In this document: positions 7,610 through 51,430 of the stretch, piece by piece
Layout: the number at the start of each line of letters is the position of its first letter
Position numbering within the stretch: the stretch's first letter is position 1
Notes under the pieces: model-generated
The model's database searches: none
What the model was told of the DNA's origin: nothing
Seen by the model: the letters and a program-made list of their open reading frames with translations, nothing else
Origin: a virus
Taxonomy: Duplodnaviria > Caudoviricetes
Reading direction: 5' to 3' (one strand)
DNA length: 51,430 nt
Virus record (IMG/VR): IMGVR_UViG_3300032225_002734
Coordinates: 1 to 51,430 of that record
Position numbers and translations under genes: made by a program

Positions 7610-7638
7610 ATGATAAGGTTTATTTGTTTATTTGTCAA
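7610..7638 (-). promoter_or_regulatory. Sigma70-like promoter, leaderless
   Basis: TTGACA-17-TATCAT, 6 nt before ATG at 7603. Confidence 0.65.
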
Positions 7639-10204
7639 TTTTTAATTCGCTAAGTTTCATATATATTTTATGGTCTTGAATTGCGATTATTTCCGCAAAA
7701 ACAGCATTTTCTTTCTTAGTTCCTTTAACTATAACTATATTTTTTTCTTGATAATTTTTATTATTATTCAAAGATTTGTTGCTCTCTATGAAATCATTAA
7801 ATAAAAGCGTATCAATTGTATTCGTTTCATCACCGATTTTAATCCTACAAAATTTTGTTTTTCTTTCATTTTGCGCCACTCCTGTATACACATCTATTAC
7901 TTCTCCAATAAAGTATACTTTTGCGCCAAACGGTGCGTCCATTATTTGTTGAACCGATGAAAGCTGTTGATTTTTTTCTGCAAAAATATCTCTTAAAGTT
8001 TTTTCGTAAGTATACCCTAAAAGCCTTTTTTCGTAATACCAATTTGCGAAACTTTCACTTTTGCTATTTTGATTGTATATGTTTAAATATGGTTCATATT
8101 TTTTCTTTATAGTATCTAATCTCGAAGTTTTTATTATAACTTTGCACTTTTCATCAGTAAATTTATTTAAATGTTTTATAATTTTAATTAAATCAAAATC
8201 AAATTGTTCTCCAAAAGATATGCAGAATTTTTTTTCTTTTGCGTTCAAAATGTTCCATAATTGGGCTTCTAGGACTATTTTACTTCTGGATTGTTTGAAC
8301 CCCGTAAGAGCTCCTGCTTGTATTAAAGAGCATAAAACACCGATGTTTAGGTCCGCCTCTTCTGCTGCTTGGAATATTTCAAATTTATTAGAGTATTTAT
8401 TTCTAAAACTGTTCAGCTTTTCTATAGATTTATCTGAAATTCCTTTAACAGAAAGAAGTCCAAATCTAATGTCATCATTTTCAATCGAAAAATCCATATC
8501 AGATTTAATAATATGAGGTCTTAATAATTTAATATTAAATGCGCCCATTTCTTTTTGAATTTTTGATATTTCCCCTATCGGATCTGGTTCATGTCTGGTC
8601 ATCTTTAATAAAGACAAAAAGAATTCTTTCGGATAATTAAATTTTAAATATATTGTGCAAGCAGCCAAAGCTGCATAAGCTATAGAGTGCGACTTATTGA
8701 AAGAATAATTGGCCGAGTCTTCTAAAATTTTCCATAAAATCTGTCCAACTTCTTTGGGCAAGTTATTTTCTTTGATTTTTAATTCAATTTTCTTTTTCCA
8801 AGCTTTAATTTCTTCCGTTTTCTTTTTGCCCACAATTCTTCTTAAAATTTCTGCTTCGTCCAAAGTGAACCCAATTTTATTTGCCATTTGCATCAACTGT
8901 TCTTGATAAAGAGCTACACCCCCTGTCTGTTTTAAGATATCATCAAAGAATGGGTGAATAACTTCATATTGCTGAGCATTGGTATATCTTGAATAAGTAT
9001 CAGCGAAATCCAAGGCTCCTGGTCTAGCCAAGGCTAAAACCGCGCTCAGTTCTTCAAGATTTTTAGGTTTCACTTTCTGGCATACTCTAAAATTAGTGTC
9101 TGCTTCAATTTGAAATAATCCATGTGGCGTTTTTAGGTCTTGCAAAACTCTATATATCGATGGGTCATTTAAGTCTATATCTGTTATTTTTATCCCTATC
9201 TGCTTACAAACGTCATCTACTACGGACACGCTTCTTAGCCCCAAAATATCAAGTTTTATATTGAACAGCGAAACCCAGTTCATATCAAATGATGATACAG
9301 ACTCTTTATCGCTCGAAAATTCTGTGGGGCACGAATCTTCTAATTTAGAATTAGACAATAAAACGCCAGAAGGATGAACTCCTTTGTTTTTAATCAAATT
9401 TCTTAACTTTAAAGCGGTATCATATATAGCTTTATTTTCATCACACCATTTTTTGAATTTAGGGACTTCATTATACGCCTCTTCTATATCTTTCACCTGT
9501 CCAAAAATTTTTGGTATAAGCGCGGAGACTGAAGTCATCTCTTGGTCAGATTTTTCTCCTATTATTTTACCGCATTCTTTAATAAGAAGCCTACCACTTA
9601 AGCTGTTCAAAGTTAAAATTTTACTAGTTTTTCCTTTAAATTTTTCTTCTAAATGCTGCAAAACCTTGTGTCTATTATAATAGCAAATATCTAAATCGAC
9701 GTCGCACATCAAGGCGCCGTCTAAATAGGTTATATTATCAATAATTTGCTTTTTAGCTCGAATTTTTGATATAAATCTTTCAAAGTAAAGATTATATTTT
9801 AAACTATCTATTTGCGTAACGCCTATTAAAAATAATATTAATGAACCAGCGGCAGAGCCTCGTCCCAACCCTACGGGAATATTATTTTCTTTACAATAAT
9901 TAATTACATACCAAACTAATAAAATATAATCTATAAATCCTAGCTCTTGGATTGTTTCAAGTTCGTGTTTTATTCTCGCAATATATTCATGATGTTCTTT
10001 GGAGTCATTTTTTAAATTTAATTTTTTAAGCCCTTTTAAGGTCAAGGCTCTTAAAAATTCATAATTATAAGCGTCTTCGCTGATTCCGACTTCATGTTTA
10101 TACTTAAGATCGATATAAAATTCAGGGAGTCTTACTCCATGAAGGGGTAAATTTATATCAGAGAATTGTTCTCCAAAAGATTTTTGATTAATTAAATTCT
10201 CCAT
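7628..10204 (-). CDS. dnaE: DNA polymerase III alpha subunit, polymerase core lacking N-terminal PHP domain
   Basis: GRGSAAGSL, FERFI, DVDLD, HPSGV, KLDILGL, RPG, YQEQLMQ, YSFNKSHS, C-terminal OB-fold-like region. Confidence 0.95.
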   Translation of the reverse strand: MENLINQKSFGEQFSDINLPLHGVRLPEFYIDLKYKHEVGISEDAYNYEFLRALTLKGLKKLNLKNDSKEHHEYIARIKHELETIQELGFIDYILLVWYVINYCKENNIPVGLGRGSAAGSLILFLIGVTQIDSLKYNLYFERFISKIRAKKQIIDNITYLDGALMCDVDLDICYYNRHKVLQHLEEKFKGKTSKILTLNSLSGRLLIKECGKIIGEKSDQEMTSVSALIPKIFGQVKDIEEAYNEVPKFKKWCDENKAIYDTALKLRNLIKNKGVHPSGVLLSNSKLEDSCPTEFSSDKESVSSFDMNWVSLFNIKLDILGLRSVSVVDDVCKQIGIKITDIDLNDPSIYRVLQDLKTPHGLFQIEADTNFRVCQKVKPKNLEELSAVLALARPGALDFADTYSRYTNAQQYEVIHPFFDDILKQTGGVALYQEQLMQMANKIGFTLDEAEILRRIVGKKKTEEIKAWKKKIELKIKENNLPKEVGQILWKILEDSANYSFNKSHSIAYAALAACTIYLKFNYPKEFFLSLLKMTRHEPDPIGEISKIQKEMGAFNIKLLRPHIIKSDMDFSIENDDIRFGLLSVKGISDKSIEKLNSFRNKYSNKFEIFQAAEEADLNIGVLCSLIQAGALTGFKQSRSKIVLEAQLWNILNAKEKKFCISFGEQFDFDLIKIIKHLNKFTDEKCKVIIKTSRLDTIKKKYEPYLNIYNQNSKSESFANWYYEKRLLGYTYEKTLRDIFAEKNQQLSSVQQIMDAPFGAKVYFIGEVIDVYTGVAQNERKTKFCRIKIGDETNTIDTLLFNDFIESNKSLNNNKNYQEKNIVIVKGTKKENAVFAEIIAIQDHKIYMKLSELKIDK

Positions 10205-10415
10205 TGTCTTTCTTTTTTTCTATTTCTTCACTAAAGGCTTTTAATCCCTTTGATAGGATTTTCAATGAGTTGTCATTCTTTAAATTAAAGAAGATATCTG
10301 CTTTGCCCTGTTTTTCCCCCTTTTGTATGCTTATTAGTAAATACTCTATATCTCTTTTGTCCAAAAGATCTACTGCATCATAAATATAATCTAGTGAGGA
10401 CATATTAAATATCAA
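10188..10415 (-). CDS. Small hypothetical protein within split-polymerase cluster
   Basis: 75-aa ORF (likely ATG at 10403) between exonuclease and dnaE. Confidence 0.6.
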   Translation of the reverse strand: MIFNMSSLDYIYDAVDLLDKRDIEYLLISIQKGEKQGKADIFFNLKNDNSLKILSKGLKAFSEEIEKKKDNGEFN

Positions 10416-11085
10416 CTTGCCATTTCAATTTATTCCATATTTTTAAATTTAAGTCAAGATCATTTAGCGCATCATGCAATTTTTCGTAATCATGGTCTAT
10501 GCCATTTTCTTTGCCAAGCGTCGTCAAAGAGCTTTTGACATCTTTTCTTTTTGTATGATATATTTTATATTGATATTCTAAAAAATTGTCGATTCTTTTA
10601 TACGGAGTATTATATTTAATTCCTCTAGCCAAACAATTTGTATCTATGATTTTATTCATTAAATGCTCCCAATGACAGCCCATCTTTTTATATAAATCTT
10701 TTATTAAGTAAATATCGAACCCTAAAATATTGTGTCCCACAATATAATCCGCATGATCAAGCCAATCTTTTATCGTTGGAAAAACCTCTTCTATTTTTAC
10801 CCCAATTTTTTTCATTTTATTATGATCATACCTAGTTATTCTGGCTGCATCTTCACTAATTTTAAGATCTGTATCCCAATTAATATAATAATTTTTACTG
10901 TCAATTTTAAAATCGCCTTTAGCTTTTATCATGCCTACTTGCCATGGTAAATTGTGGCAAAAATTTAAACACAAATTAAAAGTTTCACAATCGATAAAAA
11001 TATACGTTTTGTTTTTATCGTATCTTAATAAATGCTCATCCATTTTTAATAGCCTCCATCCAGCTTTCAAAAGAAAAATCGTCAC
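10405..11085 (-). CDS. DEDDh 3'-5' exonuclease (DnaQ/epsilon-like); likely start at 11043
   Basis: FIDCET, GHNILGFD, HDALND. Confidence 0.9.
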   Translation of the reverse strand: MTIFLLKAGWRLLKMDEHLLRYDKNKTYIFIDCETFNLCLNFCHNLPWQVGMIKAKGDFKIDSKNYYINWDTDLKISEDAARITRYDHNKMKKIGVKIEEVFPTIKDWLDHADYIVGHNILGFDIYLIKDLYKKMGCHWEHLMNKIIDTNCLARGIKYNTPYKRIDNFLEYQYKIYHTKRKDVKSSLTTLGKENGIDHDYEKLHDALNDLDLNLKIWNKLKWQVDI

Positions 11086-11800
11086 TAGTCATATGCTCGA
11101 TCTCGGGTTTATTTAGAGTAGTTCGAGCGTTAATGCATCTAAAAGTTAAATATGCTTTGAAATCTTTTTTTGATTTATAATATATGCTTTTTGTTTTTAA
11201 AATATTATTTTTATTTCGTTTTGTATATTCTATTATTTTCGATTGTATTAATCTGTCAAATGGAAGATTATTATCTTCAAAAAAGAAAATAGGCGCGCAA
11301 AAATCAATTTGTGGAGTGCATAATGAATTTCTTAATAAATTATTAAATATAAAAGAATCATAAAATGGTATGCAGAGAATCAAATCTTTCTCATCCCAAA
11401 TAGATCTTAGAGTTTTATAATCCATCCTTGGCTCGTAGTAGAATCCATATTTTGCCGCAGTACTAAATATTTTAATTAATTTTTTGTAACCATTTTCATT
11501 TTTGAAAAAAATAACAAATTTTGAATTCTTTATTCTACTTTCGTCTGTTTTGTCTTCCATGTTATCCGTCACAGTAATTCTCAATCCGTATTTTAAATTA
11601 ATATTATTTTTCTTGCAATTCGTATATGCTTGTAAAAATGATGTCATATTGTCTTCTACAACGTATAAATTTTTAAAATCATTTTCTTTGGCTATATTAA
11701 TAATAGAATCTGGGTATAGCTCTGATTCTATTTCGTCTTCAAAAGTCAATATAGATCTTCCAATACTATAATGAGATTTAAATAGGGGTATTATATCCAT
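11036..11800 (-). CDS. Stand-alone PHP domain of DNA polymerase III alpha
   Basis: FKSHYSIGRS, VVEDNM, LKYGLRI, KNENGYKKLIKI, YYEPRMD match the N-terminal PHP of DnaE. Confidence 0.85.
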   Translation of the reverse strand: MDIIPLFKSHYSIGRSILTFEDEIESELYPDSIINIAKENDFKNLYVVEDNMTSFLQAYTNCKKNNINLKYGLRITVTDNMEDKTDESRIKNSKFVIFFKNENGYKKLIKIFSTAAKYGFYYEPRMDYKTLRSIWDEKDLILCIPFYDSFIFNNLLRNSLCTPQIDFCAPIFFFEDNNLPFDRLIQSKIIEYTKRNKNNILKTKSIYYKSKKDFKAYLTFRCINARTTLNKPEIEHMTSDDFSFESWMEAIKNG

Positions 11801-24372: not shown

Positions 24373-25389
24373 ATGCACGCTATTGTCATATCTAATAAAA
24401 AACAAGATGCAAAAATTGATATTTTTTTTGATGAAAATGCAAAAAGTAAAAATTTTAAAAACTTGGACGATATTACCTTTTTACATAATCAACTAATATC
24501 AAAATTAAAATCATTAAATGAAACCGATGGATATGCAATTTGTATTGATTCTAAAGATGGATATGATTTAGGGATAAAAAAAATATCTGATATAGCTGTA
24601 GAATTTTTAAATGATAATTATCATGATTGGGATATTATTAACATGTCTTCCATAGGTAATGAAATTTGGTCTGCTCAGAGACCCTTGAAAACTTCAAGAA
24701 AATCTTCGTGGGCTTTATCGGAAGATTATATGACTAATAATTTTGTAAAAAAAATATATACATTTCCTAGATATCCTTCTGGAAGAAAGTACTATATGAA
24801 TACTTATTGCAGTATGTATTTAATAAATTTAAAGAATATAAAAAAAATATATGATATATTGTGCCCAATTAGAATGAATGGAATTTTGATAAATTTTTTG
24901 GAGAATTTAAATAAATTAAATTTATATTTTTTAAATTCAAATATAAATAAATTTGAAAGCTATAACAATCCTGGCTCTGCTGATGTCAATTTAGCTTACG
25001 ATCCCACAATATTTTTTGATTGGTATGGTGGAGACCTAAAAAATAAAATTTTTTATGATAATATCTTTATTTTAAAGATCCATAAATCTTTAGTAAATCC
25101 ATTAACAGATGAAGAAATATTAAATAGATTCGTGGTAAAAATAGATAAAAAAATTGTCGATCTAGATGAAGTGAAAATAAGATGGGCTACAGATGATTCA
25201 AATTATAATATAGAAAATAATTTAATTGAAATAGTCTTCTCTGTAAAAACTTCTTTGCAAAAAATACTTCATTCTAAATACTGGAATAAAGAAATTTTGC
25301 TTGAAGCTGTCTATTTATGCCCTCACACTGGTAATAAAATAATAAAAGAAAAAAATCTTTTCTTAAAAAAGATTGACAAAAAGACATAA
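24373..25389 (+). CDS. Degenerate GT25-like protein, paralogue of 25742-26857
   Basis: WDIINMS vs WDILYLS; MYLIN..ILCPI vs AYIIN..ILPI; LKIHKSL vs LMHKSL; lacks the EDD motif. Confidence 0.55.
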   Translation: MHAIVISNKKQDAKIDIFFDENAKSKNFKNLDDITFLHNQLISKLKSLNETDGYAICIDSKDGYDLGIKKISDIAVEFLNDNYHDWDIINMSSIGNEIWSAQRPLKTSRKSSWALSEDYMTNNFVKKIYTFPRYPSGRKYYMNTYCSMYLINLKNIKKIYDILCPIRMNGILINFLENLNKLNLYFLNSNINKFESYNNPGSADVNLAYDPTIFFDWYGGDLKNKIFYDNIFILKIHKSLVNPLTDEEILNRFVVKIDKKIVDLDEVKIRWATDDSNYNIENNLIEIVFSVKTSLQKILHSKYWNKEILLEAVYLCPHTGNKIIKEKNLFLKKIDKKT

Positions 25390-25400
25390 ATATTTATAAT
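25373..25400 (+). promoter_or_regulatory. Consensus sigma70 promoter upstream of non-coding structured region
   Basis: TTGACA (25373-78)-16-TATAAT (25395-400). Confidence 0.75.
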
Positions 25401-25406
25401 TGTAAT

Positions 25407-25700
25407 TGTATCAAGTAGACATACCGCCCAATTAGCGGATAAGGTTTGCCGTACTCCGATAAACGGTAAGTTTTATTAGTTCGCGCGTGGGCAACGCTTC
25501 CGGAGCTTGCGACCCAGATAACCATTAATAAAATAATGGGAGTGTAGGTGTAAGGGCTAACACGAGAATGACAGTCCTACCGGTGTCTGATAAGTGTTAG
25601 GGAGCCGAAAGGCTTATATGACTCAATTGGGAAGTCGAACTAATAGGCTTTTAAAACCCTACACAGGGAAAGCTCCGCTTTGAAGATCTCATTGGGAAGT
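25407..25700 (+). ncRNA. Unassigned large structured RNA candidate (ends approximate)
   Basis: ORF-free, GC-enriched; TATTAGTTCG/CGAACTAATA 10-bp long-range stem; several hairpins incl. AGCC-GAAA-GGCT; potential pseudoknots. Confidence 0.7.
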
Positions 25701-25741
25701 TAAATTAGTCTGATTAAGATAAAAATCTTATAATTATTGGA

Positions 25742-26857
25742 ATGAACGTTTATGTTATTAATGTCGAAAATGCAATAATCAGAAAAAATAAAATATCTAA
25801 AAATTTAAAAGATTGTGGTTATGATAAAGTTACGTTCTTCAAGGCAGTCGAGCCAAAAGATATTAAAAAATATGAAGAATTATATTCTAAAAATTTTAAA
25901 TACAAAGAAGGCACTTTAGCTTGCGCTCTATCTCATACTCTATTATTAAAAGAAATAGAGCTTAAAAATTTTTTAACATCTCCAATATTAGTTTTAGAAG
26001 ATGATATCGTTTTGAATAAAAGCTCGAAATCTATGATTTATCTATTGAATAATTTTTTAAATGACCATGATCAAAATTGGGATATTTTATATCTTAGTTG
26101 GGGTCTCCAAAGCAATACTCATAAACTTTGGGAGGGACAGAAGCCTCTAATAATTGAAGAAAAAAAAATAAATAATGATTGGAGTAAAATCGGACAATTA
26201 ATAAATTTTTATTTTATAAGAAAAATAAAAAAAGAATCAAAAGTTGTAGAATTTTTTGAATGGAGTGATATTTATGTAGATTGGTGTAAAAATGATGTAT
26301 TCAAATATCGATCATTTCAAAATTTGATAAATCAGTCGGCCTATATTATCAATCCCAAAAGAGTAAACCATATCTTATCAAAGATTTTGCCAATAGATGA
26401 AGCGATTGATATTAAAATTTTTAAAAATTTAAATGATATGAATATATATATGCTATCTCCATCTCTAGAAATTGTCAGACCAGATTTAGAAACATCAAAA
26501 GACTCATTAAGGTTAGATTCTGATTATAAGAAAGATATTCATTTTTTGTGGCCAAAATATAACGATATTCTTAATAAAAAATATGATTATACTTTTAAAA
26601 TACTTATGCATAAATCATTAATACATAATGAAGACTATTCTTTTATAAAAGATAAATGTCAATTTTTATTAAATAACAATAAGATAGTTATGGATATTGA
26701 TATTTCCTATAATGAAGATGATTTTACTGAAATAAGTTTTATTTTAGATAAGGATACGTTATGTTCATTACCGGAGAAAAATAGACTTGAATTTATTTTC
26801 GAAACTTTTTGGAGTAAAGAAAAGATTAAAAAAATAATTAATTTTTCGGTTTCTTAG
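25742..26857 (+). CDS. GT25-family glycosyltransferase
   Basis: YVIN...R, FFKAV, GTLACALSH, LVLEDD, AYIIN, AID. Confidence 0.85.
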   Translation: MNVYVINVENAIIRKNKISKNLKDCGYDKVTFFKAVEPKDIKKYEELYSKNFKYKEGTLACALSHTLLLKEIELKNFLTSPILVLEDDIVLNKSSKSMIYLLNNFLNDHDQNWDILYLSWGLQSNTHKLWEGQKPLIIEEKKINNDWSKIGQLINFYFIRKIKKESKVVEFFEWSDIYVDWCKNDVFKYRSFQNLINQSAYIINPKRVNHILSKILPIDEAIDIKIFKNLNDMNIYMLSPSLEIVRPDLETSKDSLRLDSDYKKDIHFLWPKYNDILNKKYDYTFKILMHKSLIHNEDYSFIKDKCQFLLNNNKIVMDIDISYNEDDFTEISFILDKDTLCSLPEKNRLEFIFETFWSKEKIKKIINFSVS

Positions 26858-26952
26858 TACACTTTTTTTCTCAAAAATAAAAATGTTAACAACTTTATTA
26901 AAAAAAACTTTGTATGGCCTTAAAAGTAATGTAATATATTAGCTGATCTATT

Positions 26953-29214
26953 ATGCAAAAAAATATTAACGTAAAAAAAAGAAGTGGCTCCATTGAAAGA
27001 TTTGATATAGAAAAAATTCATAGAGTTATAAATTGGGCGGTCAAAGATTTAACTAATGTTAGTTTAACCGATATAGAAATAAATGCTAAAATAAATATAA
27101 ATGATGGAGTAAAAACTGAAGAAATTCATAAACTTCTAATAGAATCGGCTGCAAGCTTAATTTCTATAGATAAGCCAAATTATCAATATGTAGCCGGAAG
27201 ACTTTTAAATTATCAATTAAGAAAAGATGTATGGAAAGGCAAGCACGCTCCTAGATTATTAGAGTTTATAAATCAAGGATTAAAAAATAAGATTTATGAT
27301 TCTATAATTTTAGAAAAATATACAGAAGATGAATTAAATAAAATTGGAGAATTTATAGACCACGAAAGAGATTACATTTTTACTTATGCTGGCATAAAAC
27401 AATTATGTGATAAATATTTAATCAAAGATCGAGTTAGTGGCGAAATATATGAGACTCCACAGTTTGCCTACATCTTAATAGCTATATACGGTTTTATAAA
27501 TTATCCATCAAATACAAGATTATCTTATATTAGAAAATTTTATGATGCAATCAGTAAACATAAAATAAATCTTCCGACACCAGTAATGGCTGGCGTAAGA
27601 ACTCCTAGCAAAAATTACGCTAGTTGTTGTCTGATTGGCATTGATGATACTAGAGAAAGCATTACTGCTAGTGCTACTGCTGTTAGTATGGCTACAGCCA
27701 ATAGATGCGGAATAGGGATTGATGTATCTAAAATTAGAGCGATTGGTGCTCCTATCAAAAATGGAGAAGTTGTGCATACCGGCCTTATTCCATTTTTAAA
27801 AATATATGAAAGCAGCGTAAAAGCTTGGCAGCAAAATGGTTTAAGGGGCGGAAGCGCTACTTGCAATATCCAATGGTGGCATTATGAAATCGAAGATATT
27901 GTTGTTTTAAAAAATAACGCTGGCACAGATGATAATCGTGTTCGTAAGCTCGATTATACAGTTGGTATGAGTAAATTATTCTACGATAGAGTTTTGAAAG
28001 ATGAAGACGTTGCTTTATTTAATACCGCTGAAGTACCAGAATTATATGAAGCCTGGGGCACTAAAAATTTTGATAAAATATACAAAGAATGTGAATCTAA
28101 AAAAATAAAAATTAAAAAGAAAATATCTGCGCGTAAATTATTTTCTCTTATTATTAAAGAAAGAGTGGAAACTGGAAGAATATATATCCTTAATGTAGAT
28201 CACGCTAATGAACATGGAGCTTGGCACGACAAAGTCACAATGAGCAATCTATGTACAGAAGTTATTCATCCCACTATCCCACTGAATGATTATCATGATA
28301 AAGAAGGCGAAATCGGCATGTGTATTCTTTCGGCAGTTAATATGCTAGAAATTAAAAACTGGCAAGACCTTGAAAAGACATGCGATCTTATCGTTAGATT
28401 TCTTGATGAAATCATTGACCTTCAAGATTATTTTAATATTGCTGCTGAAAATTTTGCAAAAAAACGTCGTAGCCTCGGAATTGGTATAACCAATTTAGCC
28501 GCTTATCTCGCTAAAAATGAATTAAAGTATTCATTAGATAAAACGCTTCCAATAATCGATGAATGGATGGAGCATTTTCAATATTATCTCTTAAAATCTA
28601 GTTTAGAATTAGCTAAAGAAAAAGGCAAATGCAATAAATTTGATAGGACAAAATATTCAAAAGGCATACTCCCAATTGATACTTATAAAGATAAAGTAGA
28701 TGATATTTGCAAAAGAAAACTTTCTCTCGATTGGGAAAAACTTAGAAAAGATATTAAAGAATTTGGGCTAAGGCACTCTACGCTATCATCTTGTATGCCT
28801 TGCGAAAGTAGTTCGGTTATTCAGTCTTCTACAAATGGAGTCGAACCAATTCGTAGTCTTATTACTTATAAAATGAGTAAAATGGGTAAGCTCCCAGTAT
28901 TAGTCCCTGGAATTGGAAAATATGATGAAAATTATGAATTAGCTTATGATTTTAAAGATAATTCTGGATTATTAAAAATTAATTCTATTATTCAAAAATA
29001 TATTGATATGGCTATATCTACAAATTTATATTACAACTATTCTCATTATGAAAATAATATCCTTCCAGACTCTAAAGTAATGAAAGAGATTATGTATGCT
29101 TATAGTTTAGGATTAATTAGCTTGTACTATAACAATAGTGATGATGGAGATAAAGAACAACTTATGGATCAGAAAGAAGAAGGTGATTGCTCTTCTGGGG
29201 CGTGTAAATTATGA
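26953..29214 (+). CDS. nrdA: Class Ia ribonucleotide reductase alpha subunit with ATP cone
   Basis: VKKRSG ATP cone, PTPVMAG, ASCCLI, SNLCTE, MPCESSS, SLYY, CSSGAC. Confidence 0.97.
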   Translation: MQKNINVKKRSGSIERFDIEKIHRVINWAVKDLTNVSLTDIEINAKININDGVKTEEIHKLLIESAASLISIDKPNYQYVAGRLLNYQLRKDVWKGKHAPRLLEFINQGLKNKIYDSIILEKYTEDELNKIGEFIDHERDYIFTYAGIKQLCDKYLIKDRVSGEIYETPQFAYILIAIYGFINYPSNTRLSYIRKFYDAISKHKINLPTPVMAGVRTPSKNYASCCLIGIDDTRESITASATAVSMATANRCGIGIDVSKIRAIGAPIKNGEVVHTGLIPFLKIYESSVKAWQQNGLRGGSATCNIQWWHYEIEDIVVLKNNAGTDDNRVRKLDYTVGMSKLFYDRVLKDEDVALFNTAEVPELYEAWGTKNFDKIYKECESKKIKIKKKISARKLFSLIIKERVETGRIYILNVDHANEHGAWHDKVTMSNLCTEVIHPTIPLNDYHDKEGEIGMCILSAVNMLEIKNWQDLEKTCDLIVRFLDEIIDLQDYFNIAAENFAKKRRSLGIGITNLAAYLAKNELKYSLDKTLPIIDEWMEHFQYYLLKSSLELAKEKGKCNKFDRTKYSKGILPIDTYKDKVDDICKRKLSLDWEKLRKDIKEFGLRHSTLSSCMPCESSSVIQSSTNGVEPIRSLITYKMSKMGKLPVLVPGIGKYDENYELAYDFKDNSGLLKINSIIQKYIDMAISTNLYYNYSHYENNILPDSKVMKEIMYAYSLGLISLYYNNSDDGDKEQLMDQKEEGDCSSGACKL

Positions 29215-35092: not shown

Positions 35093-35695
35093 TTAAATAA
35101 TATCACTATTATTTATACTTGTCAACTTATTTTTTAAAATTTTTATAGTTTTATTATGTAGATTTATTACGGTTTGAGTGCTTAAATTTAATTTTTTGGC
35201 TATATCATTCCAAGATCTTTTCTTATCAGAAAAATATCTCATTTTATATATTGTATTTATCCTCTTGTCTTTTAATTTTTGAATTAAACTTAATATCAAA
35301 TCAGAGTTTTCTTTTATCAAAGAATTAGTAGTCAAGTCCTTTTTTTGTTTTAATTCTATATGATATTTAATTTTTTCGTGATCCATATTAGTTGTGGAAA
35401 TAGTCTTTTTATTTATGCAATTTAAACAGTGATATCTCATTTGATTACCAAGCCATGTAGAGAATTTAACATTTTTGTTGCAATCAAAATTTAGAGCAGA
35501 TTTATATATTACCATTAATTTATCAGAAGTTATTTCTTCTGGGCTTAAGCCAACTGAAAGAAAACTATTATAATACTTCCTTATCATTTGATGGCAAATA
35601 CCGCTATGCCTAGCTTCCAGTTCTAGAAGAGCAGAACTATCCGCATCATTTTTTACTTTTTCAATTAATTCAAAGTCTTGTTTTATACAATTCAT
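35093..35695 (-). CDS. RNA polymerase sigma-70-family factor
   Basis: Region 2 FDCNKNVKFSTW; region 4 HTH SWNDIAKKLNLSTQTV. Confidence 0.85.
   Translation of the reverse strand: MNCIKQDFELIEKVKNDADSSALLELEARHSGICHQMIRKYYNSFLSVGLSPEEITSDKLMVIYKSALNFDCNKNVKFSTWLGNQMRYHCLNCINKKTISTTNMDHEKIKYHIELKQKKDLTTNSLIKENSDLILSLIQKLKDKRINTIYKMRYFSDKKRSWNDIAKKLNLSTQTVINLHNKTIKILKNKLTSINNSDII
35097..35125 (-). promoter_or_regulatory. Sigma70-like promoter
   Basis: TTGACA-17-TATTAT inside the 3' end of the sigma gene. Confidence 0.6.
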
Positions 35696-43875: not shown

Positions 43876-43918
43876 ATTTTATATTATATATATAATAGTA
43901 AAATTTATCTAAAATTTT

Positions 43919-44304
43919 TGGACCTGCTCGGGGTCGAACCGAGGTCTTTTAATGATTTGAATTAAAATACTACAAGTTTAGCTCTTTTTATTTTTAGCCT
44001 TGTGTAGATAAAGAACAAACACACTTAGCGATTTTATTTTGAATATTGAATACTATAAGAATAAAAAAACTTATAATATTCAAACATCTAATAACGCAAT
44101 ATTCCAGTAGATGTGTCGTGGATATCACGCTGTAACTTAGGCTACAGATTCGGTCATCTCAACAAGAGAAACTCTTGCGGAAATATGACCTTTATATTTA
44201 GCTGTTTTGGCAGTTAATATAATTAAAACTTTTTAAAGAGACCCGTTTTAACCTCTACTTGCATTTTAATTTTAATTATTAAAATCGAAACCAAATTCAG
44301 GCCC
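43919..44304 (-). ncRNA. ssrA: tmRNA
   Basis: 5' GGGCCTG pairs with 3' CAGGTCC-A (G3:U); T-arm CTCGG-TTCGACC-CCGAG; TAACT-GCC resume site; tag ORF 44211-44137 AKTAKYKGHISARVSLVEMTESVA*; CCA not encoded. Confidence 0.93.
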
Positions 44305-49817: not shown

Positions 49818-51430
49818 ATGAAAATAAACCTACTAAAAGGGTTACTAAGAAGCACAGCCGCAAAATTAATTGCGGCTTTTTTAATGTCTGGAGCGGTCCA
49901 AGAATCTCAAGCAGTAACGTTCTTATGGAATAATACTGGATCAGCATGGACATCTGGAACCAGTTGGACAAATGGCGTACAACCATCTTCAACTAGTTCT
50001 AGCACTACAACAGATGATATTCAATTTAGTAATTATGGAGCAAATAATAATACAGTTATATTAACTTCTACTAGAGCTGCAGCAAGTATGGCATTTCTAA
50101 CTAATGCTAATGCATATACCGTTAATAGTTCTACTGGAGCTCAAACATTATCAATAAGCAAAGGTCTTACTAATAATTCAACTGCAACTCAAACATTTAA
50201 TATATTAGTAGAAAATGCTAATGCTAGTAATACTTGGTATCAAACTTCTGGTGGTAGTTTAGTATTTAATAATAATGTCGGTTTAACAACTGCATCTTCT
50301 AGTACGGCTAGAACATTGACTTTAGCTGGTGGTGGCACATTCACTTTCAATGCTGGTATTACTCAAGGATTATCTACTGGTGGAAAATTATCAATTAATA
50401 ACGCTGGTGGAATTGTTAATTTGAATGCTGCAAATACAATGGGTGGTGGAACAGTAATTAGTGCTGGTACAGTTAATATTAGTAATTCTCAAGCATTAGG
50501 TACAGGTATTGTTGAGTTAGGCGCAACAACTGGAACTACTTATGGAAATAGTATTTTAAATAATACTAAAGGTTCTGCTCTAACATTAACAGGACTTACA
50601 GGAGTATTATGGTCTGGAACAACTCCAGCTGGAATTCAGATTGGAACATCTTCTAGTACAGCTGCAAATAATATAGATTTTGGTAACGGATTAGTAACGA
50701 CAACTACATCTCGACAAATGAATATTGCTGGTACAGGAGTTACGATTTCCATGGGAACACTAACTACTACAGGTACAGGCAATGGTTACACATTCCAATT
50801 TGATGGCACAGGAAATACCATTGACTTAGATGGTTGGAAAATTAGTTCAGCTGCTACTCCTTCACAAAATGTAATACATCAATTAAAAGGCACAGCTAAT
50901 TTGAACATGGGTACGATTGAGAATGGCACAGCAGGATGGGTGAATGGCATTGAAGTGAATGGTGGCGGTGTTAACAGGTTTACTGGTAACAACACCTACA
51001 CTGGTACTACTTCTTACTTGAATGGTACTAACATTGTTTCTGGTGACAACAGCGCCGCTACAGGTGCAGTTTCAGTTGCAGGTACTTCTGGTTCAGGCAA
51101 AATGCCTTATTTGAGATTAGACAATCCCAATGGTATATCTAGTTCCAGTATCATATCTGGATCCACAAGTACTTCTACAGCAGGTACTATTGACTTTAAT
51201 GGTGGTACAAATTATGTGTTTAATTCATTTGGCGGAAACAACATGTTCTTCACCAATTCATACAATCAAGCAGCCACAGTCACATTTACAAACGCTGCCA
51301 ACACCCTTACATCATCTGCTGCTGGTAGCGGTGGCAGACAGTTGATAAACAACAGTACCAATTTGACTATAGTGTTCAATGGTAACGTAGATATTGGTTC
51401 TTCTTCTACAGGATTAAGCGATACCTTTGG
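49818..51430 (+). CDS. Secreted Ser/Thr/Gly/Asn-rich protein with autotransporter-associated beta-strand repeats (partial, not in ORF track)
   Basis: ATG 49818 after AAGGAG/AAGGA; frame open to window end; signal peptide ending ESQA; repeats LNAANTMGGGTVISAGTVNI and FTGNNTYTGTTSYLNGT. Confidence 0.85.
   Translation, partial: MKINLLKGLLRSTAAKLIAAFLMSGAVQESQAVTFLWNNTGSAWTSGTSWTNGVQPSSTSSSTTTDDIQFSNYGANNNTVILTSTRAAASMAFLTNANAYTVNSSTGAQTLSISKGLTNNSTATQTFNILVENANASNTWYQTSGGSLVFNNNVGLTTASSSTARTLTLAGGGTFTFNAGITQGLSTGGKLSINNAGGIVNLNAANTMGGGTVISAGTVNISNSQALGTGIVELGATTGTTYGNSILNNTKGSALTLTGLTGVLWSGTTPAGIQIGTSSSTAANNIDFGNGLVTTTTSRQMNIAGTGVTISMGTLTTTGTGNGYTFQFDGTGNTIDLDGWKISSAATPSQNVIHQLKGTANLNMGTIENGTAGWVNGIEVNGGGVNRFTGNNTYTGTTSYLNGTNIVSGDNSAATGAVSVAGTSGSGKMPYLRLDNPNGISSSSIISGSTSTSTAGTIDFNGGTNYVFNSFGGNNMFFTNSYNQAATVTFTNAANTLTSSAAGSGGRQLINNSTNLTIVFNGNVDIGSSSTGLSDTF
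49856..49882 (+). terminator. Intrinsic terminator-like hairpin inside signal-peptide coding region
   Basis: AGCCGCAA-AATTAA-TTGCGGCT followed by TTTTT. Confidence 0.4.

Follow-up and report, generated by a model that had tools for sequence, protein, structure and literature searches.

A predicted structured RNA of a large phage clade carries twin boxes that change in step

A predicted RNA gene in a large phage genome

The window analyzed here is the whole 51,430-nucleotide stretch of IMG/VR virus record IMGVR_UViG_3300032225_002734 (Duplodnaviria, Caudoviricetes), a fragment (34% complete) of a large AT-rich phage genome encoding a DnaE-type polymerase, primase, DnaB, RecA, nrdAB, many glycosyltransferases, and a tmRNA. 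There is no ORF of at least 50 aa at 25390-25741, and the GC content of the RNA region described below is 45%, compared to 29% for the whole window. A sequence-only reading of this DNA had drawn attention to an ORF-free, GC-enriched gap here; both properties were borne out, and the strings that it quoted were all found where it had placed them.

A sigma70-type promoter, TTGACA-16-TATAAT, occupies 25373-25400 on the plus strand, with the -35 element (25373-78) within the last codons of the ORF at 24373-25389 and the -10 element at 25395-400. It is one of only two perfect sigma70 consensus sites in the window, and a similar promoter (TTGAC-N15-19-TAnnnT) was present upstream of 59 of 61 homologues, in agreement with the earlier view that the element has its own consensus promoter. 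That view also had the element begin at 25373, where the promoter does lie, but the conserved RNA start (ACAUA) is at 25419. From there the predicted structured noncoding RNA (ncRNA) gene extends for 285 nt on the plus strand to 25703, its 3' end being set just past the second of two boxes discussed below. A terminator-like hairpin after the RNA was found in 0 of 62 homologues. Behind the -10 box, a 6-nt tandem duplication (25397-25408) that is not in a related contig lengthens the distance to the conserved RNA start.

The nrdA gene (26953-29214, plus strand) is the direct downstream neighbor of the RNA in types A, B, and C of the homologues. In the window, a glycosyltransferase family 25 gene (25742-26857, plus strand) is inserted between the two; it was missing from the corresponding place in all seven homologous loci examined. 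A conserved element, TACAC-N22-TGTTAATAA-like-N-TGTAA, is located upstream of nrdA (window positions ~26855-26950 and loci L402-L481), with or without the RNA. Its middle part resembles a DnaA box, which suggests host DnaA control of phage nrdAB.

Several other features of this genome and its relatives were recorded. The PHP, exonuclease, and polymerase parts of DNA polymerase III alpha are each encoded by a gene of their own (7628-11800, minus strand), likewise in contig G003. A probable phage sigma factor is encoded at 35093-35695 on the minus strand, with weak Pfam r2/r4 matches and a G003 homologue that has a PHROG sigma match; GTGTAATAT-like motifs upstream of many genes may be the promoter of this factor. 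What looks like a terminal gap at 49818-51430 (plus strand) is an open frame; it encodes an autotransporter-associated beta-strand repeat protein that has hundreds of relatives, and this repeat-rich autotransporter-like gene presumably hints at Verrucomicrobia or relatives as the host. The tmRNA gene (43916-44304, minus strand) ends without CCA, and its 24-residue tag (AKTAKYKGHISARVSLVE..SVA) is strongly conserved in every clade contig with a tmRNA. A tRNA-Ser with the called anticodon ACT, unusual for bacteria, recurs in contigs G001, G002, G003, G006, G007, G014, G016, and G019, some of which carry a long tRNA-Ile(TAT).

Homologues and distribution

Pattern scans of viral and metagenome contigs yielded 33 type-A sequences, and the divergent types were obtained from loci around 80 nrdA relatives, 56 of which had a full or edge-cut copy of the RNA within their flanks. 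With 6 incomplete loci left out, 105 loci gave 62 distinct RNAs of 281 to 322 nt, which were aligned with MAFFT (alignment A2). The window RNA shows a mean identity of 81% to the other type-A members and 50 to 53% to types B, C, and D/E. The RNA is found upstream of nrdA in types B and C; types D and E have it downstream of nrdB or at another site on the opposite strand, in head-to-head orientation to the tmRNA. Since the RNA moves between nrdA and tmRNA neighborhoods, it is a stand-alone gene. The earlier suggestion of a switch does not fit this arrangement, with the type-D/E RNAs lying elsewhere, by the tmRNA, on the opposite strand and a glycosyltransferase gene standing between RNA and nrdA in the window; an nrdAB riboswitch or leader is likewise not supported, as the type-D/E RNAs do not keep a fixed position 5' of the gene on its strand. 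In types D and E, a 69-aa ORF (L460:11389-11598; L419:10622-10828) lies upstream of the tmRNA, in divergent orientation to the RNA; its copies are 42 to 81% identical, had no Pfam match, and were not found beside types A, B, and C.

Exactly one copy of the RNA was present in 13 of the 14 contigs analyzed in full, the exception being a distant phage, and the complete genome G042 likewise has a single copy. In five partial contigs of distant phages (nrdA 76 to 78%), the RNA was unmatched. Among clade contigs, 19 of 24 gave no match to a strict pattern and 16 of 20 none to a sequence-only model. However, none of 20 RNA-negative contigs that we checked had both nrdA and tmRNA, and those with a single landmark end within ~5 kb of it, so true absence from clade members does not follow.

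No sequence match was found in INPHARED phages, apart from one 26-nt chance piece, or in PLSDB plasmids. The B/D/E twin-box pattern had 0 matches in GTDB genomes; the A pattern had one, approximately the chance expectation (estimated at 0.7), which is an intergenic pair of ATTGGGAAC 9-mers in Singulisphaera acidiphila (L749:1501-1574, minus strand) without homology to the RNA. When viral sequences were scanned twice with degenerate patterns in search of further box types, the second scan covering 33 of 64 parts, known members alone came back, among 199 loci.

A conserved fold with two pseudoknots

Single-sequence folding was modestly above chance (z of -2.4 on the plus strand and -1.4 on the minus strand), and the real support for structure is therefore comparative. 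The 73 proposed pairs were standard in 80.7% of the cells of A2, compared to 66.3 +/- 0.4 after shuffling (0/500), and showed 711 double changes among the 62 RNAs versus 291 when shuffled, figures to be read with the knowledge that the structure was derived from the window, that related sequences inflate counts, and that MAFFT misregisters subfamilies; per-helix counts thus weigh more than these totals. Pairing fell to 33 to 46% when the proposed pairs were slid along the alignment. RNAalifold on the full MAFFT alignment returned 12 pairs only, because of the misregistered subfamilies. Per-helix tests were performed on 32 type-A homologues, in nearly all of which H2, the H3 core, H4, H5, H7, H8, H9, and both pseudoknots were paired.

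Most helices proposed by the sequence-only reading survived this comparison, some with altered boundaries. The 5' CCGC/GCGG hairpin, H1 (25424-25438), is retained as a variable element, paired in 20 to 27 of 32 RNAs in MAFFT columns. H2 pairs 25448-52 with 25463-67 in all 32 RNAs, with compensatory changes; it is the inner part of the proposed TTGCCGT/ACGGTAA hairpin, whose outer two pairs belong instead to the long stem. This long-range stem, H3 (25468-82 with 25637-50), closes the core junction; its core, 25476-82/25637-43, is paired in 31 to 32 of 32 RNAs, and it extends beyond the original proposal to 25468-72/25647-50. Within the proposed hairpin at 25488-516, H4 (25488-91/25513-16 plus 25495-97/25509-11) carries pseudoknot 1 in its loop; its outer strands are paired in 32 of 32 type-A RNAs, and the hairpin is paired in 62 of 62 RNAs across subfamilies, with double changes at five of seven pairs. 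The CCATTA/TAATGG hairpin, H5 (25522-25539), is paired at 25522-27/25534-39 in 30 to 32 of 32. H7 (25557-63/25594-600) encloses H8 (25570-73/25584-87). The CTAACAC/GTGTTAG pairing is present in 32 of 32 but is nested rather than crossing as had been thought, being crossed only by pseudoknot 2. The AGCC-GAAA-GGCT hairpin, H9 (25603-25614), is kept in type-A homologues and is longer in types B, D, and E. H10 (25657-25668), which precedes the 3' strand of pseudoknot 1, is longer in most homologues.

Pseudoknot 1, overlooked earlier, joins CGGAGCUU (25501-08) to AAGCUCCG (25670-77); with the partner strand taken as the best match within a search window, 6 to 8 of its 8 pairs are kept in all 62 RNAs in 13 sequence combinations. 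Pseudoknot 2 joins GUAGG (25544-48) to CCUAC (25576-80) in the H8 loop in 32 of 32 type-A RNAs and covaries across subfamilies, where by the same procedure 4 to 5 of 5 pairs are kept in nine combinations. The earlier GTGTAGG/CCTACAC pairing (25658-64), whose columns are paired in 23 to 32 of 30 to 32 RNAs but are interrupted in most homologues by the insertion of a hairpin, was set aside, since GUAGG pairs better with 25576-80. Three further proposals were dropped: AGACATACCG/CGGTGTCT, paired in as few as 9 of 32 RNAs, whose 3' strand (25581-88) covaries instead as GACA/UGUC versus GGAUG/CAUCC; the CCCAATT/AATTGGG loop-loop kiss, at 19 to 31 of 30 to 32 per pair with zero compensation; and the GACT/AGTC hairpin (17 to 32 of 32). 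The G-U pairs and GAAA loops lie on the plus strand, which favors RNA over a DNA-level element.

On this comparative and sequence evidence, the element is almost certainly a structured ncRNA gene, with 62 distinct homologues that keep the predicted fold with compensatory changes.

Comparison with known RNAs

In Rfam 15, the whole window matched the tmRNA only; at E values up to 10, region 25300-25800 gave one chance match, outside the RNA, and five homologous loci gave tmRNA plus one match (E of 0.8) elsewhere. In the window, ARAGORN found only the tmRNA, at 43919-44304, and no tRNA-like domain in the RNA. The idea of a new phage ncRNA is backed by covariation, the conserved promoter, the single copy, and the lack of an Rfam match.

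The segment ahead of pseudoknot 1, GAGGGAAAGUC in type E, is similar to conserved region I of bacterial RNase P. In RNase P RNA, the P4 helix has a bulged U, and conserved regions I and V lie on either side of it in single-stranded junctions. RNase P RNA, also in permuted form, was rejected: the strand order is reversed, pseudoknot 1 is bulge-free with its 5' strand in the H4 loop, and there is no Rfam match. A region IV look-alike, GAGAAUGACAG, is a helix strand that gives way to GCGAUGGAUGA in 24 of the 32 type-A RNAs. A permuted group I intron was rejected for want of covariation, which the RNase P reading likewise failed to show.

Broadly, the RNA is comparable in kind to ROOL, GOLLD, ARRPOF, and GEBRO, as far as the available portions of the report on these motifs describe them, but shares no model with them (PMC5737381). 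Like ROOL, GOLLD, and OLE in the parts of the accounts available, it is a stand-alone, multijunction, pseudoknotted phage RNA near other RNA genes (PMC5737381; 10.1101/2024.12.08.627333); at 281 to 322 nt, however, it is shorter than ROOL (581) and GOLLD (>800), the topologies differ, no model matched at E values up to 10, and lock-step twin boxes are not described for these RNAs in those parts. ARRPOF and GEBRO, found at plasmid origins according to the same partial source, share its size class (223 to 349 nt) and are tied to replication regions (PMC5737381), but they are plasmid-borne, whereas the present RNA is phage-borne and without an Rfam match.

No description of the RNA was found among literature titles and the starts of abstracts. 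The box strings were absent from six of the nine supplementary files of a catalogue of viral structured RNAs, which may hold the RNA unnamed (PMC10690425). We conclude that this is a real, undescribed RNA class.

Twin boxes that change in step

A near-repeat noticed earlier at 25622 and 25688 was confirmed and proved to be the most important feature of the RNA. Box 1 (25619-25635, plus strand), a junction strand, consists of R-G-A, S-U-Y, one extra base, and the 10-mer AUUGGGAAGU (25626-35); box 2 (25684-25700, plus strand), in the 3' tail, consists of R-G-A, one extra base, M-U-Y, and the same 10-mer (25691-700). The 3' 10-mer of box 2 recurs identically in box 1 at all 105 loci, compared to 42 comparable repeats in 5,250 shuffled RNAs, and comes in eight types, including AUUGGGAAGU, AAAGAAAAGU, and AGGGAAAAAG. 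Allowing one extra base per box, the match spans 17 nt, and the repeat carries two conserved offset bulges. Fifteen of the 16 paired positions agree between boxes in 73 to 74 of 74 distinct RNAs, nine of them variable between phages, and the window RNA is the single exception to agreement at position -7. The sixteenth is C/C or G/A, with G in box 1 and A in box 2 in 40 of 74. Flanking positions agree in 4 to 53 of 74 only. Within the boxes, A, U, A, G, A, and A are invariant in the 74 RNAs. The boxes are 81% purine, lie 65 to 75 nt apart (not a multiple of 3), and fold largely unpaired (0.68 and 0.55, versus 0.41 overall, with pseudoknots ignored).

Individual lineages change both boxes together. 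Locus L397 differs from 31 relatives by private changes at 25627, 25692, and one base past box 2; L385 has private changes at 25631, 25696, and one end of pseudoknot 1; those in L242 and L465 are likewise paired; and L846 has an otherwise fixed G altered in both boxes. With the private box changes coming in pairs, no third internal RNA position covaries with the boxes. On a quick nrdA tree (73 of 81 rows after duplicate removal), box types intermix, with four variants among the near-identical nrdA genes of L462-L466, a mixing that nrdA recombination could also yield.

Searches for a pairing partner were negative. No complement to the boxes was found inside the RNA, and the 14 contigs showed neither enrichment of their own box nor a shared target site tracking box type. 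Only 1 of 69 shared protein families separated box types, unconvincingly, with 2+2 members and a position 34 kb away. Pairing of the boxes with tmRNA or tRNA ends showed no covariation and was rejected. A partner, if there is one, may lie in an unlinked phage or the host, most contigs being partial.

A possible R-loop primer and the evidence for an origin

Box identity without a visible partner would be explained most simply if one box paired with the complement of the other, and the template strand of the gene is a complement that is always present, which we propose as the pairing partner. We give nearly even odds to the idea that either box realigns on the complement of its twin. A loop of ColE1 RNA II anchors in this manner, with upstream G-rich RNA on C-rich downstream template DNA, and such loop-to-template anchoring would impose the same identity constraint as the twin boxes. 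In the available text on ColE1, RNA II is a promoter-driven structured RNA running into its origin, where its persistent hybrid primes replication (PMC5043065). By analogy, the folded core would expose box 1, which is transcribed first. Once polymerase unwinds the DNA at box 2, the box 1 segment of the growing transcript would invade and pair with the template strand there, and this hybrid would anchor a persistent R-loop from which phage DNA replication could be primed. This more specific proposal, with box 1 RNA on the box 2 template as primer anchor, is possible but doubtful, although still the likeliest of the mechanisms considered.

The purine-rich boxes, absent terminator, single copy, and portability of the RNA fit the primer reading, as does the direction of the fixed G/A difference, which is wobble compatible only as box 1 RNA on box 2 template. 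An own promoter without a terminator, a trait of ColE1-type primers, is seen here as well (promoter in 59 of 61, terminator in 0 of 62). However, the RNA has half the length of RNA II, no plasmid sequence match in PLSDB, and no antisense RNA I-like gene that we could find, and it belongs to a phage of lytic type that encodes a primase and a helicase itself, and in which an origin role is a proposal. Counting against the primer are also the invariant box bases, which pure identity leaves unexplained, the two conserved offset bulges, and the position of box 1 in the H3-closed junction, which limits its winding around DNA. No phage RNase H was found in five contigs, so a host enzyme would be needed.

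Evidence that the RNA lies at a replication origin is weak. A local GC-skew minimum falls within ~1 kb of the RNA in 10 of 13 contigs (two of the ten near contig ends) and 4 to 8 kb away in the other 3; in the complete genome G042, it is 9 kb away (18 kb detrended). The tmRNA is 12 to 23 kb from the minimum in the six type-A/B/C contigs that have one. Near the RNA, 73 to 100% of coding sequence points away, but the skew minimum simply follows gene divergence and is confounded as an origin signal. Codon-site skew also failed as independent evidence: GC skew at fourfold sites showed no difference between genes that point away from the RNA and those that point toward it (P = 0.2), and an AT-skew signal (P = 9e-10) was explained by gene class. 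DnaA boxes were not clustered around the RNA. Should the RNA serve as an origin primer, the ncRNA reading and the alternative of a DNA origin that accompanied it may both be partly true.

Other explanations for box identity

A trans-acting RNA, in which both boxes bind one external partner (a host RNA, or a protein dimer of either host or phage, with the RNA as decoy or sponge) and change along with it, would account for the invariant bases, which suggest specific recognition, for the largely unpaired boxes, and for the strong early-type promoter. We consider it somewhat unlikely, because each lineage-private single-base double change demands a matching change in the partner, because the 14 contigs revealed no phage target and the 69 families no convincing protein, and because the box types are intermixed in phages with evident recombination, which thus probably share hosts.

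It is also conceivable, although unlikely, that the boxes contact each other like with like, in a parallel or noncanonical helix, within one molecule or in a multimer made of RNA alone, of the kind formed by OLE, ROOL, and GOLLD. To our knowledge, there is no precedent for a homo-helix of 10 to 16 pairs that tolerates U/U, C/C, G/G, and A/A alike; moreover, the G/A position in 40 of 74 RNAs breaks the symmetry, and antiparallel box-box pairing is uncompensated in L397 and L385. Such contact would require no partner and would suit the purine richness and free 3' tail, and the symmetric four-pair A-A helix between OLE chains, as depicted in the available part of that study, offers a precedent (10.1101/2024.12.08.627333).

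A third possibility, quite unlikely, is a copy-and-jump template: one box would be copied by a polymerase, and the copy would then re-anneal to its counterpart, as with A/A' of DRT10 and telomerase RNAs. The genetic signature is the same, two copies that must match each other rather than a fixed sequence; in DRT10, according to the portion of the report available, single A or A' mutations abolish repeat addition and double mutations restore it (PMC12632851). However, the reverse transcriptase family PF00078, expected for template RNAs of the retron, DRT2, and DRT10 kinds, was unmatched in nine contigs, including complete G042, which leaves room for divergent enzymes beyond PF00078 and for host enzymes; the segment between the boxes is engaged in H3 and pseudoknot 1; and the 17-nt repeats lie across helices at a spacing unlike the 9-nt repeats with 2- to 4-nt homology of DRT10. 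G042 has no second copy of the segment. DNA contigs aligned to 24400-26300 showed no box-to-box joint, a result that carries no information because rare forms are lost from contigs. In a telomerase-like variant, which is very unlikely, one box would be copied, for re-annealing to the other, by a host defense reverse transcriptase or by an RNA-copying polymerase of the phage or host; if true, the RNA would serve as a hijacking template or decoy whose 17-nt address can be freely reprogrammed.

Finally, a self-sufficient ribozyme, an nrdAB cis-regulator, or a purely DNA-level element would suit the complex conserved core and a location directly upstream of nrdA, near the gene-divergence point, in types A, B, and C, but all three are improbable given the position and strand of types D and E, independent of nrdA, the occurrence of the nrdA-upstream element without the RNA, the plus-strand G-U pairs and GAAA loops, and the lack of an internal guide for the boxes.

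Implications

Large bacterial RNAs with comparably extensive conserved tertiary pairing are rare and are usually catalysts or RNAs of core processes. New here are the position-by-position register of the boxes, the negative partner tests, and the test of the origin idea. The twin boxes provide a built-in genetic handle, unlike ROOL and GOLLD, since they must match each other while almost any sequence is allowed. If the primer reading is true, a phage with a full replisome would be using a ColE1-like origin that is anchored by RNA; if the jump template is true, a telomerase-like reaction would proceed without a linked reverse transcriptase. This RNA class occurs once per genome and has been retained throughout a large phage clade in which the neighboring genes are freely swapped.
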